Positions 14,155-64,000 of a stretch of 64,000 bases of DNA are shown one piece after another. Made by a program: the position numbers and the translations under genes. The notes under the pieces are model-generated. The model saw only the letters and a program-made list of their open reading frames with translations. It was not told where the DNA came from and ran no database searches. Source of the DNA: an uncultured Gammaproteobacteria bacterium (lineage in GTDB: Bacteria > Pseudomonadota > Gammaproteobacteria > Francisellales > CACEW01); NCBI GenBank assembly GCA_964539235.1, contig CAZIIK010000050.1:160-64159 (forward strand), written 5' to 3'. The number at the start of each line of letters is the position of its first letter. Position 1 is the first letter of the stretch.

Positions 14155-14493
14155 CTAATCACATTCCTGTGTATAAGTCACTGTACATTCTGAAGCGTCA
14201 TTGCCTGTAGGCTGACAGGTTTGATGTTTCACTGCATGACAATGCGGCGTGTTGTGATGCTCCACCTGATGCTGCGTGTGCGCCGATGGTTTCGGTGCAC
14301 TGGGACCCGAAGGCACGGTTGGTGCCGGCGGCAAAGTTGCCGGGCCTGCTTCAGTTTGGGCCTGGTCATGCATGGCCTGTGTTTGCTCAGCGTCGTTAAT
14401 TAAGGCTTGCCAATTCACGTCGCTTTTACTGCAGGCCGTGAGCGCACCAAATAAGGTGATCAACGCTAAGATTTGAATGAAATTTCGATACAT
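14155..14493 (-). CDS. Small lipoprotein with a His/Cys-rich C-terminus
   Basis: Start ATG at 14493 (MYRNFIQILALITLFGALTAC, lipobox LTAC). The tail HTQHQVEHHNTPHCHAVKHQTC...ECTVTYTQEC suggests metal binding. The stop is 3 nt from the ABC-F start. Confidence 0.6.
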   Translation of the reverse strand: MYRNFIQILALITLFGALTACSKSDVNWQALINDAEQTQAMHDQAQTEAGPATLPPAPTVPSGPSAPKPSAHTQHQVEHHNTPHCHAVKHQTCQPTGNDASECTVTYTQECD

Positions 14494-14660
14494 ACGGACA
14501 ATTTCCCAGATCAACAAGGCGAGCAAGCATAGCACAGGGCATAGAATATATATCCCAGCGTATTAATCCCTATTGACCGAATATGAAGGGCTCGGGCAGG
14601 CTGGTCGCCTAACTTAATTGTCGTGAGATTTAAACTGTAAAACATAAAAAGGTAACCGCC

Positions 14661-15089
14661 ATGCTCATTAAAAATATCTTCGCCCTTACAATTGTCAGTT
14701 CAGCCATTGCAACCGCATCACTTGGTTTCTCAGGTGTTCAGGCTCAAACCTGCCATTTGAATCAAAATCCAGATGGATCATATACACAAGTTGGCTGCAG
14801 CAAAAGAGGTAATGATACTTTCCAAGTGTTTGCTGGAAATGTCATAACACTTCAGCCACACCTACAACACATATTTTTTCAAATCACACATGCTGACAGT
14901 ATTAAGGTGAATGGTGTTAACACCCAGTACTTTAGAGACCTAATGACTCAAGGCACAACCTTCAGAGTTAGTATTATCGGTCGCGGTGAGACCCAAATCC
15001 CCAACGGCACAAAGCTTTTCAGTGTTTCATACAAAGCAAAGGTATTGGATTTCGCCAATTCGGAGCTGGTGTGTCAACCTGTCTATTAG
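14661..15089 (+). CDS. Secreted hypothetical protein
   Basis: 142 aa with an N-terminal signal peptide (…GFSGVQA/QT). I recognise no family. Confidence 0.5.
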   Translation: MLIKNIFALTIVSSAIATASLGFSGVQAQTCHLNQNPDGSYTQVGCSKRGNDTFQVFAGNVITLQPHLQHIFFQITHADSIKVNGVNTQYFRDLMTQGTTFRVSIIGRGETQIPNGTKLFSVSYKAKVLDFANSELVCQPVY

Positions 15090-15093
15090 GCAA

Positions 15094-15843
15094 CTAAAGC
15101 CCACAGCCAAAGGGTGAGCCGCAGCCCATACTGAAAATATTGCCACCGGCTGACACAGCTGTGCAGTCGGTGCGTTCGCGCGCGGCCACCAGGTCCGCTG
15201 TGCCGTGATATAACGCTGGATCTAACAATTGTGCAGCCATTTCAGTTTCCAGCGCTGCGGCTTTATGCAAGGTTTCTGTAGACATACGGCACAAATCAGT
15301 TTGATCACTATTCACGCAAGGATCACATTCCAAACTGCGATGCGCCAAAATCGGTGAGCCGCTACGTTCAACCAAAGCCAGAATGTCCGCATCATCGTGT
15401 TTGAATAATGGGTGCCATACCGCGCGTTCGCCATAATGCGGACTGTCTTCGATGTGCTCAGGCAATTGATTCAAACTCACCGCAGCCGCACGACGATGCG
15501 CCAATAGAATAGTAGCTTCCAAATCAGGATCACACTCTACTTGATCTAGCCAAGCCAATAACGGCAAACCTTTGAGAAATCCGGCACACCACTGAAACTT
15601 ACGCGACGGAAAACTGCCACGTGTTTGCATCAAACGAACAAAATCTGCTTGTGGGCGCAACACCACCCACTTAAAACCCAAACCTGACACCCAAGCCTCG
15701 CACTGTTCGACCCGCGCCGGCCATTCCGGTGCCGCCCAACCGGTTTCGACATAGACCACGGCAACATCAGTTAACGATTGTTCAGCAGCCCATTGAATTA
15801 AGGCAACACTGTCATTACCAAAATTAGCTGGAATCACATACAT
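15094..15843 (-). CDS. PAPS-reductase/PP-loop family protein, translationally coupled to queC
   Basis: The ATG at 15843 shares one base with the queC TGA (TGATG on the minus strand). Contains NFGNDSVALIQW, FQWCAGFLKGLP and ECDPC. The track ORF's Cys/Arg-rich extension to 15936 lies inside queC and is rejected. Confidence 0.7.
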   Translation of the reverse strand: MYVIPANFGNDSVALIQWAAEQSLTDVAVVYVETGWAAPEWPARVEQCEAWVSGLGFKWVVLRPQADFVRLMQTRGSFPSRKFQWCAGFLKGLPLLAWLDQVECDPDLEATILLAHRRAAAVSLNQLPEHIEDSPHYGERAVWHPLFKHDDADILALVERSGSPILAHRSLECDPCVNSDQTDLCRMSTETLHKAAALETEMAAQLLDPALYHGTADLVAARERTDCTAVSAGGNIFSMGCGSPFGCGL

Positions 15844-16535
15844 CACGCGCAACCTGTAACACCGGCCACATAACGTGTTGGATCTGCAACACCTGCAGCA
15901 GCAAAACCTTCGCGACGCAATACACAGCTGTCGCAACGACCACAGGCTTCACCCACTGCATTTGCCTGATAACAGGAGACACTCAAACTGTAATCCACAC
16001 CCAAGGCCACACCGGCTTGAATCGTTTCTGCCTTACTTAATTGCACCAGCGGCGCGCTGATTTGAATGGCTTGGCCCGATACACCTTGTTTAGTCCCGAC
16101 GTCCGCCACCTGCTGGAAAGCTGCAATAAATTCAGGTCGACAATCAGGATAACCTGAGTAATCCACACTGCTAACACCAATAAAAATTCGCTCGGCACCA
16201 ACCACTTCGGCATAACCCAAGGCAATCGATAAAAACACGATATTGCGTGCTGGCACATAGGTTGCTGGGATCTCACCATCTCCAGCATAATCAGGCACAT
16301 CAATTGTTGTATCGGTTAATGTTGAACCACCCAATGCCCCTAACGACTTTAAATCAATCACTCGATGCGGCACCGCAAAAGTCTCCGCAACACGAAGTGC
16401 TGCAGCCAATTCAGCCACATGACGCTGCTGGTAATCAAAACTAATCGGGTAAGGCGCATAGCCTTCTGATTGTGCTAACGCCATACAGGTCAAACTGTCT
16501 AAACCACCGGACAACAGCACCACCGCTTTTTTCAT
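15843..16535 (-). CDS. queC: 7-cyano-7-deazaguanine synthase
   Basis: 230 aa with a PP-loop ([10 protein letters not shown]) and a C-terminal Zn-Cys cluster (CGRCDSC). Confidence 0.9.
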
Positions 16536-16611: not shown

Positions 16612-18501
16612 TCAAAAGGTCTCAATCTGTTTATCGCGTTTTTTCAGATGAACCAACAGCAAGGAAATCGCTGCCGGAGTGACACCCGAAATGCGACTCG
16701 CTTGCCCAATAGTTTGCGGACGCACATCGGTTAATTTCTGCCGCACTTCATTCGATAAGCCGGATACGTTGGCATAATCTAAATCCGCCGGCAATACCGT
16801 TTGTTCATGACGCTTCTGACGTTCGATTTCTAAGGTCTGCCGTTCAATATAACCGGCGTACTTCGTTTGAATTTCAATCTGCGCTGCCGCTTGTGCATGC
16901 GCCAAGCCAGGGCCCAAACCCTCAATCTGCATTAAGTCAGCATACGTCACCTGCGGACGCTTCAGCAATTCTAATACGGGGTATTCTCGTGTCAGTGATT
17001 GATCCAAAGCCACTGAAAAAGCCCGTGCCGCCGCAGTGTCAGGCCGCACCCAAGTCGTGCGCAAACGCGCCAGTTCAGCCGCAATTAACTGCTGTTTTTC
17101 TTGAAACACCTGCCAACGGGTTTCATCAACCAAACCCAGTTCCTTGCCTAATGGCGTGAGCCGCGCATCGGCATTATCTTCGCGCAGCAACAAACGATAT
17201 TCCGCACGTGATGTGAACATGCGATACGGTTCTTGCGTACCGTTCGTAACTAAATCATCTACCAACACACCTAAATAAGATTCATCACGGCGCGGTGTCC
17301 ATTGCTCACGCCCAGCGGCCCGGCGCGCGGCGTTCAACCCGGCTAACAAACCTTGTGCACCGGCTTCTTCATACCCAGTGGTGCCATTGATTTGCCCAGC
17401 AAAGAACAAGCCTTGCACCGCCTTAGTTTCGAGGGTGAGTTGCAGTCCACGTGGATCAAAGTAGTCGTATTCGATGGCATAACCCGGACGTGTGATGTGG
17501 GAATTTTCAAAGCCTTTAATTGCGTGGACAAAGTCTTGCTGCACGGCAAATGGCAGGCTGGTGGAAATACCATTCGGATACAGCTCAAATGTATCCAAGC
17601 CTTCTGGTTCAACAAAAATCTGGTGTTTGTCTTTATCAGCAAACCGCATCACTTTGTCTTCAATCGATGGGCAGTAACGCGGTCCAACACCTTCAATATT
17701 ACCGGAATACATGGCGGAACGGCTGATGTTCTGCGTGATGATGTCATGCGCCTGGGCATTGGTATAGGTGATGTAACACGGCACTTGGCGTGGATGTTGG
17801 CCGGCGTCGCCTAAAAAGGAAAATACCGGCGTGGGTTCGTCACCAGGCTGTGTTTGCATCACAGAAAAGTCGACGGTATTGCCATCGATTCTCGGCGGTG
17901 TGCCAGTCTTTAAACGCCCAACTTCAAACGGCAAGGCACGTAGTCGTTTCGCCAAAGCATTTGCTGGCGGATCACCTGCACGTCCACCGCCATAGTTAAC
18001 GTCACCAATGTGGATGCGACCGCCCAGGAAAGTGCCCACTGTCAGTACGACATTGTTTGCCATAAAGCGTAAACCCATTTGGGTAATCACGCCGGTCACA
18101 CGGTCGTGTTCGATCACCAGGTCTTCTACGGCTTGTTGAAACAGCGTCAGGTTAGTTTGTTGTTCAACCAGACGACGAATGGCTTGGCGATATAGATTAC
18201 GATCGGCCTGAGCACGCGTTGCTTGTACCGCTGCGCCTTTGCTGGCGTTTAGAATACGAAATTGTATACCCGCTTGATCGATTGCCTGAGCCATAGCGCC
18301 ACCCAGTGCATCAATTTCTTTGACCAAATGGCCTTTGCCAATGCCGCCGATCGCCGGATTGCAGGACATTTGGCCGATACTGTCGATGTTGTGTGTGAGC
18401 AATAAGGTGCGCGCACCCATGCGCGCTGCTGCCAACGCCGCTTCTGTACCGGCATGGCCACCACCAATCACTATCACATCGTAAACATTTTGTTCGGACA
18501 C
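16612..18501 (-). CDS. mnmG: tRNA uridine 5-carboxymethylaminomethyl modification enzyme MnmG (GidA)
   Basis: 629 aa with an FAD-binding N-terminus ([16 protein letters not shown]) and GidA-like motifs throughout. Confidence 0.95.
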
Positions 18502-18895: not shown

Positions 18896-19534
18896 ATGTA
18901 TGTCTGCAGAGTTTGGACAATCGGAAGAGATGGCAAACCAAATTTTTACATAGGCGATGACAAGGCTAAAATTGATAAGGCACAAGCTAGGGCCTATCAG
19001 GATGCAGGTAAAAACTCTTATCCACAGCACCATGACGCAATCACTCATATCGTGTGGATTGGAGGCACTATGCCGAGTGAAGGCGATACAGAAACCTTAT
19101 ATTCCGTACCCGCTTTAACACTTAATGCAAAAGATATTCGGCCTAAAGCATGTGCGCGTATTCGAGAAGACCTGGCCCAAACTATTGCAAAATTATTTGC
19201 AGAAGAGCGCATATATACTTCCCAATGCTCTGTCATCATTAACACAGTAATCGTTGCCAATGTGGCTACGGCAATTGAATGTATTCAGGGCATGCTAAAG
19301 AAAGGCCTTATAATTGAGATAACACCCTGTAATGTTTATCGGTATCTTACATATCTTTCATCTTCATCAGAATCAAGCAATCCATTTCGACTCACGTTTT
19401 TTGAGTATGCGAAAGCATTAAAAGATCAAAACGCACGACGATACTCAGATCGATATGGAATTGAATCGAAGAAAGACTCAGAGCAGCCAGTTGAAATAGA
19501 AATGTCGCTAATGGGTGATAGTCGACCTGATTAA
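18896..19534 (+). CDS. Hypothetical protein (orphan ORF, AT-rich by eye)
   Basis: 212-aa ORF with no motif I recognise. Its composition looks lower in GC than its neighbours. It contains a perfect TTATCCACA at 19018-19026. Confidence 0.4.
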   Translation: MYVCRVWTIGRDGKPNFYIGDDKAKIDKAQARAYQDAGKNSYPQHHDAITHIVWIGGTMPSEGDTETLYSVPALTLNAKDIRPKACARIREDLAQTIAKLFAEERIYTSQCSVIINTVIVANVATAIECIQGMLKKGLIIEITPCNVYRYLTYLSSSSESSNPFRLTFFEYAKALKDQNARRYSDRYGIESKKDSEQPVEIEMSLMGDSRPD

Positions 19535-63619: not shown

Positions 63620-64000
63620 CTAGTTTGATGAAATGTATTTTTCACGTCTCACGGATTTGGTATCAAAGCCATAAGTTTCCGTCAACAAATTGAAAGCATC
63701 ATCGACCATGTTAGGGTTACCGCATAGATACACCACATCTTGGTCCGCATTGAGATCTAGGTTTTCTAAACTGCTTTGGATATATCCTGAACGCTCATCC
63801 GTTTGTAGTGTTGAAGTTTCACGACTCAGATGGCTGAGATACTGTGCATGCGCTGGATTGTCCTGACAAAATTTCTGAAAATCGTTGGCATATAATAAAT
63901 CCGCACGGTATTGCACGCCTTGTAAAATCACCGCTTGAGTTCCAGCAGAGCAGGTCTTGTGCAACAATGGCAACATAGAGCGGTAGGGGGCAATCCCGGT
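63620..64000 (-). CDS. Ferredoxin-NADP reductase-like oxidoreductase, C-terminal NAD(P)-binding part (partial)
   Basis: The frame stays open to the window end. Upstream codons read TGIAPYRSM, the FNR NAD(P) motif. The C-terminus has YLCGNPNMV. Confidence 0.75.
   Translation of the reverse strand, partial: TGIAPYRSMLPLLHKTCSAGTQAVILQGVQYRADLLYANDFQKFCQDNPAHAQYLSHLSRETSTLQTDERSGYIQSSLENLDLNADQDVVYLCGNPNMVDDAFNLLTETYGFDTKSVRREKYISSN

Follow-up and report, generated by a model that had tools for sequence, protein, structure and literature searches.

The juxtaposition of queC with a gene for a PAPS-reductase-like protein, here called the partner, is probably a lineage-specific feature of gene order that puts a canonical queC next to a gene from an uncharacterised family of Fe-S proteins with the PAPS-reductase fold, and not a dedicated deazapurine module. 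The pair lies in a 64,000-nucleotide stretch of DNA (the window) from an uncultured gammaproteobacterium. An earlier note on this DNA had proposed that the two genes could form a dedicated module for a deazapurine derivative or for nucleic-acid modification. As the pairing turned out to be confined to one small lineage, chance gene order is the most likely explanation, rather than a new module. We read the partner as a putative ferredoxin-linked Fe-S enzyme, whose family is sister to the phage family phrog_424.

Both genes lie on the minus strand, with mnmG upstream of queC on the same strand after a gap of 76 nt (Table 1). The layout described in the earlier note was seen again in the sequence, including the TGATG in which the queC stop and the partner start share one base, mnmG as the neighbour on the other side of queC, and the four listed partner motifs (NFGNDS, residues 7-12; QWCAGFLKGLP, 84-94; ECDPC, 172-176; CGSPFGCGL, 241-249). 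The partner frame comprises 750 nt, from the ATG at 15843-15841 to the stop at 15096-15094. A mechanical ORF list runs this frame back to a TTG at 15936 (280 aa); because 43 homologues align with the N-terminus at [12 protein letters not shown], we take the ATG to be the real start.

Table 1. Features of the queC/partner locus (positions in the window)
Feature	Position	Strand	Evidence
mnmG (tRNA uridine-5-carboxymethylaminomethyl modification enzyme)	16612..18501	minus	ORF; Pfam GIDA, GIDA_C_1st and SAM_GIDA_C in the identical gene of contig L081
Canonical queC (7-cyano-7-deazaguanine synthase), 230 aa	15843..16535	minus	Pfam, NCBIfam, motifs
TGATG junction: queC TGA (15845-15843) and partner ATG (15843-15841) with common A	15841..15845	minus	Sequence read
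Partner, 249-aa PAPS-reductase-fold (adenine-nucleotide alpha-hydrolase) protein	15094..15843	minus	Pfam, PHROGs, AlphaFold2, Foldseek, homologues
NFGNDS, partner residues 7-12, at the PP-loop/P-loop position of the fold	15808..15825	minus	Motif and profile alignment
Cys86 in QWCAGFLK, candidate Fe-S ligand	15586..15588	minus	Invariant in alignments A1 and A2
ECDPC, residues 172-176, CxxC pair, candidate Fe-S ligands	15316..15330	minus	Invariant in A1 and A2
C-terminal CGSPFGCGL, residues 241-249, with invariant Cys241 and Cys247	15097..15123	minus	Alignment, motif
Convergent 142-aa ORF with signal-peptide-like N-terminus	14661..15089	plus	ORF list; without Pfam match

No terminator-like sites were found between mnmG, queC and the partner gene, which together with the 1-nt overlap makes co-transcription of queC and partner very probable, in line with the co-expression that had been expected from the overlap. 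The two genes probably form a small operon, and mnmG may be part of it. The overlap itself is unremarkable, as 11 of the 41 same-strand junctions in the window overlap; gaps of 10 nt or less occur at 18 of the 41. In the two related lineages that have the pair, the queC/partner junction is a 2-nt gap (TAAttATG or TAAgcATG) and not an overlap. The surroundings of the partner in the window contain no phage genes, and the whole 64 kb contain no ferredoxin gene. On the far side of the partner, its stop and that of the convergent 142-aa ORF are 4 nt apart. A 140-aa ORF, also without a Pfam match, occupies the same convergent position in one related lineage (L085), a likeness of size and position only, and a convergent ORF is missing at the locus of another (L086).

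The queC product scored 254.7 bits against the Pfam QueC model and 205.9 bits against NCBIfam TIGR00364 (cut-off 150.3), i.e. above the curated equivalog cut-off. Canonical QueC proteins (Cluster 1 of PF06508) carry the signature LxSGGxDS, YxQxHxxE, VPxRN and YPDC together with the Zn motif C(x)8CxxCxxC (PMC13329287). This signature is complete in the queC product ([25 protein letters not shown] and [17 protein letters not shown]), with a first spacer of 9 rather than 8 residues in the Zn motif. Judged by its sequence, the window queC is thus canonical. The same survey of QueC-family neighbourhoods gives queD and queE as linked genes, a linkage found in only about 26-33% of canonical members and not needed for membership (PMC13329287). 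Neither queD nor queE lies in the ~13 kb around the window queC and, as had been noted before, the other preQ0 genes are not adjacent: among the called genes with Pfam matches on the identical contig L081, folE, queD, queE and a tgt-like gene were all absent from the ~13 kb around the pair. No Rfam family, such as a preQ1 riboswitch, was detected near queC. Nor was there a TGT-like (dpdA) or other dpd-like gene of a Dpd-type system around queC, which is the sole preQ0 gene there. In its main text and one supplementary file, the QueC-family survey names neither a PAPS reductase nor PF01507 (PMC13329287), and our literature search on a link between QueC and PAPS reductases returned nothing specific.

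Across genomes, queC lies directly upstream of the partner only in the window lineage and in two related metagenomic lineages, L085 and L086, whose partner proteins are 64-65% and whose QueC proteins are 71-72% identical to those of the window. Conservation of the adjacency therefore essentially ends with the two closest metagenomic lineages. Among other genomes, queC was found within 6 kb on either side of the chromosomal family members at 0 of 80 loci, and within 10 kb on either side of viral sister-family genes at 0 of 80 viral loci. Conversely, none of the 80 queC loci nearest to the window queC had the partner within 4 kb on either side. In two Legionella genomes, both genes are present on different contigs. 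In a neighbour-joining tree, the queC-adjacent state forms a single terminal clade. These counts do not bear out a dedicated module of QueC and a PAPS-reductase-like protein.

Tight coupling of the partner gene to a neighbour is not informative, because the gene is equally tight with unrelated housekeeping genes and overlaps are common in the window. The sister sub-clade (53-59% identity) has the order dsbB-partner-hslR with 4-nt overlaps, and in other clades the partner overlaps, or is separated by 0-3 nt from, lpxK, dps, prpD or trpS. The flanks of the pair differ as well; upstream of it lies mnmG in the window and a divergent acetyltransferase gene in L085 and L086. Selection on the pair gains mild support from its persistence in three lineages, at about 65-72% protein identity, despite the rearrangements on both sides of it.

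A rival reading is that, in the window clade, the partner was drawn into 7-deazaguanine metabolism, so that queC and partner would be a true functional operon. In such a case, the partner could be a ferredoxin- or thiol-dependent reductase acting on preQ0, epoxyqueuosine or a derivative, or a modifier of Q-family nucleosides in tRNA or DNA. The 1-nt stop/start overlap and the retention of the pair in diverged lineages are consistent with this idea, as is the predicted architecture of the partner, which resembles an Fe-S reductase with a nucleophilic cysteine tail. The known epoxyqueuosine reductase QueH is also of the Fe-S type, and its alpha-hydrolase-like fold is related. However, the absence of the pairing from all three sets of 80 loci, the unlinked genes in Legionella, the lack of any other Q gene, tgt/dpdA-like gene or preQ1 riboswitch nearby and the QueC-family survey, as far as its main text and the one supplementary file go, all speak against recruitment. 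The window protein also shows no departure from the rest of its family at invariant positions. Overall, recruitment into deazaguanine metabolism appears very unlikely, and a lineage-specific gene order remains the preferred reading.

The partner is a divergent protein of the PAPS-reductase fold and not an ordinary cysH product, as had been suspected from its motifs. It passed the Pfam PF01507 gathering cut-off marginally (24.7 versus 22.5 bits). Its AlphaFold2 model has a pLDDT of 92.7, with a C-terminal tail that is modelled uncertainly (pLDDT 56-72). In Foldseek searches with this model, the best matches among solved structures were CysH, APS reductase and TtuA at TM 0.45-0.55. We collected 154 close homologues, and 169 library representatives matched at E<=1e-30; a cluster look-up left the window protein and its relatives without names or accessions. 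Five cysteines are invariant in the chromosomal family (Cys86, Cys173, Cys176, Cys241 and Cys247). Cys86 sits in a segment alignable with CysH (...K(V/I)EP), and presumably corresponds to the cluster ligands that APS reductase carries in CC..RK. The NFGNDS position aligns with SSFG of Escherichia coli and Vibrio CysH in a profile alignment. In searches against PDB sequences, the family alignment profile gave only chance matches to eL14, whereas a profile of viral sister proteins (A3) reached CysH at E 0.004, the sole profile to do so. One apparent fusion of a DUF559 endonuclease-like N-terminus to the family domain (P0043) was set aside as a probable merged gene call, being a single case with a repetitive linker.

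The nearest named enzymes are the sulfonucleotide reductases, and the partner might be a true, if divergent, APS/PAPS reductase of sulfur assimilation in which ferredoxin replaces thioredoxin as the reductant. CysH, PAPS reductase and APS reductase are its best structural matches (PDB 2goy, 1sur, 6vpu and 2oq2; Foldseek TM 0.46-0.55), the core motifs are collinear with those of CysH (P-loop, DTG, ..LK..P, RR, R-loop), and the protein carries the annotation 'PAPS reductase' in its sources. Fe-S APS reductases also have a CxxC pair and a flexible, cysteine-bearing C-terminal tail like that of the partner. Yet identity to the CysH and APS reductase structures is only 12-20%, and the partner matched none of the NCBIfam models for CysH, PAPS reductase or APS reductase (TIGR00434, TIGR02057, TIGR02055 and NF002537) at E<=1. 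Where APS reductase has a Cys-Cys pair, the partner has one cysteine, preceded by Trp, and the catalytic ECGLH of the CysH tail is replaced by CGSPFGCGL, the replacement already recognized in the earlier note. CysH would be expected beside cysDN and cysIJ, a context that the partner family lacks; in calls made partly by eye, no recurrent neighbour cluster at the 80 loci resembles a sulfate-assimilation gene, and what is conserved beside the partner is a ferredoxin gene rather than one for a thioredoxin. The nearest relatives, moreover, are phage proteins encoded in DNA replication and methylation modules. Finally, as cultured Legionella, Francisella, Piscirickettsia and Coxiella are, to our knowledge, cysteine auxotrophs without assimilatory sulfate reduction, a role in sulfate assimilation is unlikely. 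Taken together, a sulfonucleotide reductase in the strict sense is very improbable.

The closest detectable relative of the partner is phage phrog_424 in the PHROGs collection (45.6 bits, E 1e-11). The window protein is 41% identical to a putative PAPS reductase of Rhizobium phage RHph_X2_30 (QXV73623.1) over 82% of its length, and the gene of this phage protein adjoins a primase/polymerase gene. Identity to 80 viral homologues had a median of 38% and a maximum of 45%, and the viral sequences formed a clade of their own in the neighbour-joining tree. Phrog_424 and the chromosomal family share GNDS, DTGW, x(W/F)C(T/A)xxLK, ECxPC and a C-terminal cysteine pair, and an ECxPC-type CxxC is present in 84/86 chromosomal and 65/70 viral members. 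The hallmarks of the phage subfamily (invariant GNDS, RRxES, GIRxVxxWA and a Cx4C tail) and its phage context, in contrast, do not extend to the partner and its chromosomal relatives. GNDS was found in 70/70 viral but only 21/86 chromosomal members, where it is degenerate; RRxES in 66/70 versus 0/86; and GIRxVxxWA in 52/70 versus 1/86. The tail cysteines are spaced as Cx4C (CDSGxCG) in 63/70 viral and 0/86 chromosomal members, and as Cx5C in 85/86 chromosomal members. The contexts differ too: the chromosomal family lies among housekeeping genes and is linked to ferredoxin, whereas the phage phrog_424 genes lie in replication and DNA-methylase modules, with DNA methyltransferases, helicase, RecT and RusA as neighbours. 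The phage family has been taken as a cysH auxiliary metabolic gene in the literature (PMC13369170), in which we found nothing specific on a tested function for phage PAPS reductases. A broader scheme would make the chromosomal family, and with it the widespread phage 'cysH' genes, ferredoxin-dependent Fe-S modifiers of nucleic acids and not enzymes of sulfate assimilation. The position behind queC in the window clade would then reflect an action on queuosine synthesis or its intermediates, such as that of a non-orthologous, third kind of epoxyqueuosine or preQ0 reductase. This was the least probable of the readings considered, with very little chance of being right.

The fold, a (R/Q)(W/F)C..LK motif and conserved cysteines are also common to the partner and to DndC, SspD and BrxP of type 4 BREX. 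In PADLOC searches, the partner matched SspD (19.5 bits) and BrxP (15.7 bits), both weakly and with scores well under the cut-offs. The DndC model TIGR03183 was not matched by the window protein and was matched by viral sisters at 16-39 bits, compared with a cut-off of 290. This model has 447 positions and the partner, with 249 aa, is about half that size. No dndABDE, sspABC or BREX genes were seen near the partner in the window or at the 80 loci. Assignments of the partner as CysH, APS reductase, DndC or SspD were rejected, as curated models, motifs and context do not fit.

Members of the chromosomal family occur in Legionellales, Piscirickettsia-like Thiotrichales, Berkiella/Coxiellaceae and Francisellaceae-like gammaproteobacteria; the family is unannotated, chromosomal and vertically inherited, and a literature search returned nothing specific on a described PAPS-reductase-like gene of Legionella. 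A ferredoxin gene lies within 5 kb of the partner at 26/80 loci and is the gene directly downstream at 24/80, with a median offset of about 21 nt. It encodes a 7Fe ferredoxin of the FdxA type (Pfam Fer4 and DUF3470). The ferredoxin-adjacent loci are spread over deep branches of the tree, with at least 10 differing upstream contexts and several downstream ones, and ferredoxin is the sole neighbour of the partner that recurs across deep branches. In another clade, the partner is flanked by NfuA and ferredoxin-NADP reductase. The recurrent neighbours at the 80 loci include ferredoxin, TsaB, Dps, NfuA and Fpr, all checked with Pfam, and GpsA, PgsA, LpxK, PrpD and TrpRS, named by eye only. The ancestral neighbourhood appears to have been (uvrC-pgsA)-partner-fdxA-(yoaA/dinG)-tsaB-gdh. 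The ferredoxin adjacency falls partly within a larger conserved syntenic block and could reflect inherited gene order, not functional coupling.

Several neighbours in different clades are related to tRNA or the ribosome (tsaB at 19/80 loci, mnmG, trpS, hslR, rsmE and a pseudouridine synthase), so that a role in translation, in which case queC would be a meaningful neighbour, is conceivable. The partner family could consist of tRNA or rRNA modification enzymes, for example Fe-S thiolases of the TtuA/TtcA/NcsA type, and mnmG, queC and partner could form a loose 'tRNA modification' operon, co-regulated and without a chemical link through deazaguanine. In Foldseek, the [4Fe-4S] tRNA thiolases TtuA and NcsA matched the partner with probabilities comparable to those of CysH (TM 0.45-0.49). 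The three cysteines and the tail cysteines of the partner resemble those of three-Cys cluster thiolases, the cluster chemistry of TtuA and NcsA is a plausible analogue, and GNDS is retained where the PP-loop lies in the window protein. In the chromosomal family as a whole, however, the PP-loop is mostly degenerate and RRxES is lost in 86/86 members, which argues against a conserved ATP-dependent adenylation. The structural alignments with TtuA and NcsA are poor (rmsd about 10 A). Unlike these thiolases, the partner has neither zinc fingers nor a canonical SGGxDS, and its 249 aa contain no THUMP, PUA or zinc-ribbon domain for RNA binding. Nor is there a gene for a TtuB-like sulfur carrier near the partner. 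As for the neighbours, tsaB lies within one syntenic block and so does not count as independent evidence, and translation genes are common beside any housekeeping gene. A tRNA- or rRNA-modifying function is thus unlikely, though it deserves somewhat more weight than recruitment to deazaguanine metabolism.

For the partner as a putative ferredoxin-linked Fe-S enzyme, we can outline how it might work. By analogy with APS reductase, DndC and TtuA, Cys86, Cys173, Cys176 and one tail cysteine would bind a [4Fe-4S] cluster. The other tail cysteine may be a mobile redox residue or one that carries a persulfide, and ferredoxin would be the likely electron source. The nucleotide-binding core would then act on a nucleotide or nucleic acid, and not on the PAPS of sulfate assimilation. 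Among such possibilities we rank first, with low confidence, a reaction of the DndC/TtuA type in which ferredoxin supports a sulfur transfer or a reduction.

The pairing of queC and partner in itself matters little and gives no basis for proposing a new deazapurine pathway. Of value, instead, is the partner, which points to a whole family of Fe-S proteins with the PAPS-reductase fold. This family is compact, well conserved and entirely without annotation, and its carriers include important intracellular pathogens: Legionella, Piscirickettsia and relatives of Francisella and Coxiella. It is routine to class phage 'PAPS reductase' genes as auxiliary metabolic genes for sulfur, but at the loci studied here they lay among genes for DNA methyltransferases, helicase and recombination. 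Once solved, the chemistry of either subfamily and the link to the 7Fe ferredoxin would correct a common annotation, and this chemistry might reveal a new Fe-S-dependent modification or redox reaction.

The queC gene and the 249-aa PAPS-reductase-fold ORF joined to it (hereafter the partner) share one base at 15843, the A of the queC TGA stop being the A of the partner ATG, as the earlier note had read it. A mechanical ORF list starts the partner frame at an upstream TTG, giving 280 aa; as homologues begin at the ATG-encoded N-terminus (alignment of 44 family members), we take the ATG as the true start. The gene on the other side of queC is indeed mnmG, 76 nt upstream on the same strand, and no terminator-like sites were found between mnmG, queC and the partner. 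Other queuosine genes, previously described as not adjacent, are absent from the called genes of the surrounding ~13 kb (Pfam), and no Rfam elements were found near queC. By its sequence, queC is an ordinary enzyme: it scores 205.9 bits against TIGR00364 (cut-off 150.3) and 254.7 bits against Pfam QueC, its closest relatives (57-66% identity) come from Legionella, Coxiellaceae, Cellvibrionaceae and Pseudomonas, and it has every motif of the canonical signature, LxSGGxDS, YxQxHxxE, VPxRN, YPDC and a cysteine Zn motif (2026 QueC-family survey, PMC13329287). The overlap with the partner is nothing special among the 41 same-strand junctions of the window, 11 of which overlap and 18 of which have a separation of 10 nt or less. 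The stop codons of the partner and a convergent 142-aa ORF are 4 nt apart; the related metagenomic lineage L085 has a 140-aa ORF without Pfam match at the same convergent position, a likeness of size and position. Two further ORFs, of 126 and 212 aa, are also called as genes in metagenomic contigs identical to the window (L081-L083). In Legionella sp. W10-070 (L174) and a Legionellales MAG (L203), queC has mnmG ~2.5 kb upstream, encoded on the opposite strand, and from these two genomes the closeness of mnmG and queC may be older than the window arrangement.

Coordinates of the queC-partner pair and other features in the window
Feature	Position	Strand	Description
queC	15843-16535	minus	230 aa; TGA stop 15845-15843
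partner	ATG 15843-15841, stop 15096-15094	minus	249-aa frame
142-aa ORF	14661-15089	plus	convergent to partner; signal-peptide-like N-terminus; no Pfam match
126-aa ORF	14155-14535	minus	112 aa as called; lipoprotein-like, Pro/His/Cys-rich; directly after ABC-F gene; no Pfam family
212-aa ORF	18896-19534	plus	between mnmG and Cupin_5 gene; no Pfam family
ferredoxin-NADP reductase-related gene	63623-64000	minus	runs off right end of window

Adjacency of queC and the partner is conserved only locally, in the window and the two closest relatives of the partner (64-65% identical, from unrelated metagenomes). There, queC is directly upstream with a 2-nt gap instead of the overlap, QueC is 71-72% identical to that of the window, and the other flanks differ, with a divergent acetyltransferase upstream in place of mnmG and different downstream genes. 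The next sub-clade (53-59% identical; L087-L090, L253, L254 and the P0010 contig) has the order dsbB-partner-hslR, in which the partner and hslR (Hsp15) overlap by 4 nt. A tblastn search with the window QueC found no queC within ±6 kb in any of the other 80 loci retrieved from genomes (74 of them with 1 kb or more of sequence upstream), and the queC-linked state forms a single terminal clade in a neighbour-joining tree. Likewise, the ±4 kb around the 80 queC genes that best match the window copy contain no partner; in Legionella sp. W10-070 and in Legionella sp. LH_M43 both genes occur, but on separate contigs. Tight spacing is typical of the partner gene whichever gene adjoins it, be it lpxK (20-nt overlap), dps (0-2 nt gap), prpD, trpS or fdxA. 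Coupling to queC therefore speaks for co-expression in the window lineage, which we accept as first proposed, and not for joint function. The evidence indicates a lineage-specific juxtaposition and no system at all, and the queC link is probably incidental. With queC context confined to one small clade, the dedicated module for deazapurine or nucleic-acid modification envisaged before is not borne out. A queuosine-branch role, suggested by the adjacency, ranks third of four candidate roles for the partner, and it is very improbable that the partner serves queuosine or deazapurine chemistry even in the window clade.

All motifs quoted for the partner in the earlier note are present (NFGNDS, QWCAGFLKGLP, ECDPC and a terminal CGSPFGCGL). 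The partner passes Pfam PAPS_reduct marginally (24.7 bits, threshold 22.5), matches the PADLOC models SspD (19.5 bits) and BrxP (15.7 bits) weakly, and at E≤1 hits none of the curated NCBIfam set covering CysH, PAPS reductase, APS reductase and DndC. The AlphaFold2 model, computed with the family alignment as input, reaches a mean pLDDT of 92.7 and loses confidence only over roughly the final 20 residues. Its top solved-structure matches are PAPS and APS reductases, then the [4Fe-4S] tRNA thiolase TtuA, with TM-scores near 0.5 and 12-20% identity; a sequence-profile search found no solved relative of the chromosomal family. With the profile of the viral sister family, CysH comes up at E 0.004, and the P-loop, DTG, ..LK..P and RRxxS..R motifs align in order. 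The partner thus belongs genuinely, though distantly, to the PAPS-reductase fold; it is an orthologue of no characterised enzyme and, as had been left for checking, not an ordinary cysH. A true APS/PAPS reductase, the reading closest to the leading structural matches, ranks last of the four candidates; a tRNA or rRNA thiolase-like role, to which the TtuA match is relevant, ranks second.

Close homologues number 154 in a collection of 5.8 billion proteins, nearly all of 235-260 aa and unnamed; the few names assigned, in Piscirickettsia and Legionellales MAGs, read 'PAPS reductase family protein'. Among 1.84 billion cluster representatives, the family profile matched 169 at E≤1e-30, a number that rises to 852 at E≤1e-3. 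Relatives are encoded by 97 species (GTDB contigs, one genome per species), and the 80 loci retrieved from these represent Thiotrichales/Piscirickettsia, Legionella (nine or more named species), Tatlockia, Berkiella, Coxiellaceae and Francisellaceae-like MAGs. Cys86, Cys173, Cys176, Cys241 and Cys247 are invariant in the family alignment, as are Lys91, Thr34 (in the DTG-like motif), Arg140 and Arg169. One family protein (P0043, ENA contig) is called as a 419-aa fusion of a DUF559 endonuclease-like domain, a repetitive 'PQGRRELEKPCHSQA' linker and the PAPS-reductase-like domain; we rejected it as a true fusion, since the repeat has probably caused separate genes to be called as one.

Clustering of neighbours across the 80 loci gave one association spanning deep tree branches, a ferredoxin of ~107 aa (Pfam Fer4 + DUF3470) of the Azotobacter FdI/FdxA 7Fe type. 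It is found no more than 5 kb from the partner in 26/80 loci, and in 24 of these 26 it is the next gene downstream on the same strand (median offset ~21 nt). The partner-fdxA pair is kept where the upstream context has been replaced, in at least ten ways, and also in several loci with replaced downstream context. Gene strings suggest an ancestral block (uvrC-pgsA)-partner-fdxA-(yoaA/dinG-like helicase)-tsaB-(large NAD-glutamate dehydrogenase), and this block is kept across many uncultured Legionellales-like gammaproteobacteria (L005-L079, 26 genome loci). In another clade NfuA and ferredoxin-NADP reductase flank the partner, and in a Francisellaceae-like clade a Dps-type ferritin is directly upstream. 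No sulfate-assimilation-like genes were among the recurrent neighbours of the 80 loci, and no ferredoxin gene was found within the 64-kb window. The ferredoxin-NADP reductase-related gene at the window's right end is 37.5% identical to the Fpr-like neighbour in the genome locus L080; it is ~48 kb from the partner and implies no linkage.

On the PHROGs family phrog_424 ('PAPS reductase') the partner reaches 45.6 bits (E 1e-11), a better score than on Pfam. A 'putative PAPS reductase' from Rhizobium phage RHph_X2_30, whose gene directly follows one for a primase/polymerase (L091, 5953-6816), shares 41% identity with the partner over 82% of the partner's length. At least 195 viral contigs encode such sister-group relatives, which form their own clade in the tree. 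Judged by motifs, the two subfamilies are cleanly separated: the tail is Cx5C in 85/86 chromosomal and 2/70 viral sequences and Cx4C in 0/86 and 63/70, whereas RRxES (0/86 against 66/70) and GIRxVxxWA (1/86 against 52/70) are viral traits. Viral proteins end in CDSGxCG and have an invariant GNDS loop (70/70; chromosomal, 21/86) as well as four or five conserved cysteines. Their scores on the DndC and CysH models are weak, similar to each other and far under the cut-offs. In the 80 viral neighbourhoods retrieved, recurrent neighbours were DNA methyltransferases, helicase, RecT and RusA, a replication, recombination and DNA-modification module; none was a sulfur-metabolism gene, and queC was within ±10 kb in 0/80. 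In the literature, phage PAPS reductases are counted among the sulfur auxiliary metabolic genes, a label given without testing their function (PMC13369170). Our observations point to a DNA-related Fe-S enzyme, not CysH, for the phrog_424 genes.

The chromosomal family thus combines its fold and invariant cysteines with a ferredoxin neighbourhood, without sulfate-assimilation, Dnd/Ssp or BREX context and with queuosine context absent outside one small clade. Ferredoxin-supported reduction or sulfur transfer on a nucleotide or nucleic-acid substrate ranks first of the four candidates. Cys86, presumably at the position of the second Cys of the Cys-Cys pair in Fe-S APS reductases, would bind a [4Fe-4S] cluster together with Cys173 and Cys176 of the CxxC pair and one cysteine of the tail. 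The remaining tail cysteine may serve as a mobile nucleophile or persulfide carrier, like the C-terminal cysteine in CysH, with FdxA as putative electron donor, and the nucleotide-binding core (DTG, Lys91, Arg117/118, Arg140) would hold a nucleotide-containing substrate. Classical ATP-dependent adenylation is disfavoured in the chromosomal subfamily by the loss of RRxES and by a PP-loop that has degenerated in most of its members; the window partner keeps GNDS.

Overall, the queC-partner pair is part of no known system: the features that define Dpd, Dnd/Ssp, BREX type 4 and sulfate assimilation are lacking. The partner is a distinct, unannotated PAPS-reductase-fold variant, chromosomal, ferredoxin-linked, with a Cx5C tail and sister to phrog_424. 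It is a modestly interesting lead, mainly because the cultured members of the pathogen-rich lineages carrying the family are cysteine auxotrophs and because it makes the 'cysH AMG' label, routinely given to the phage relatives, doubtful.
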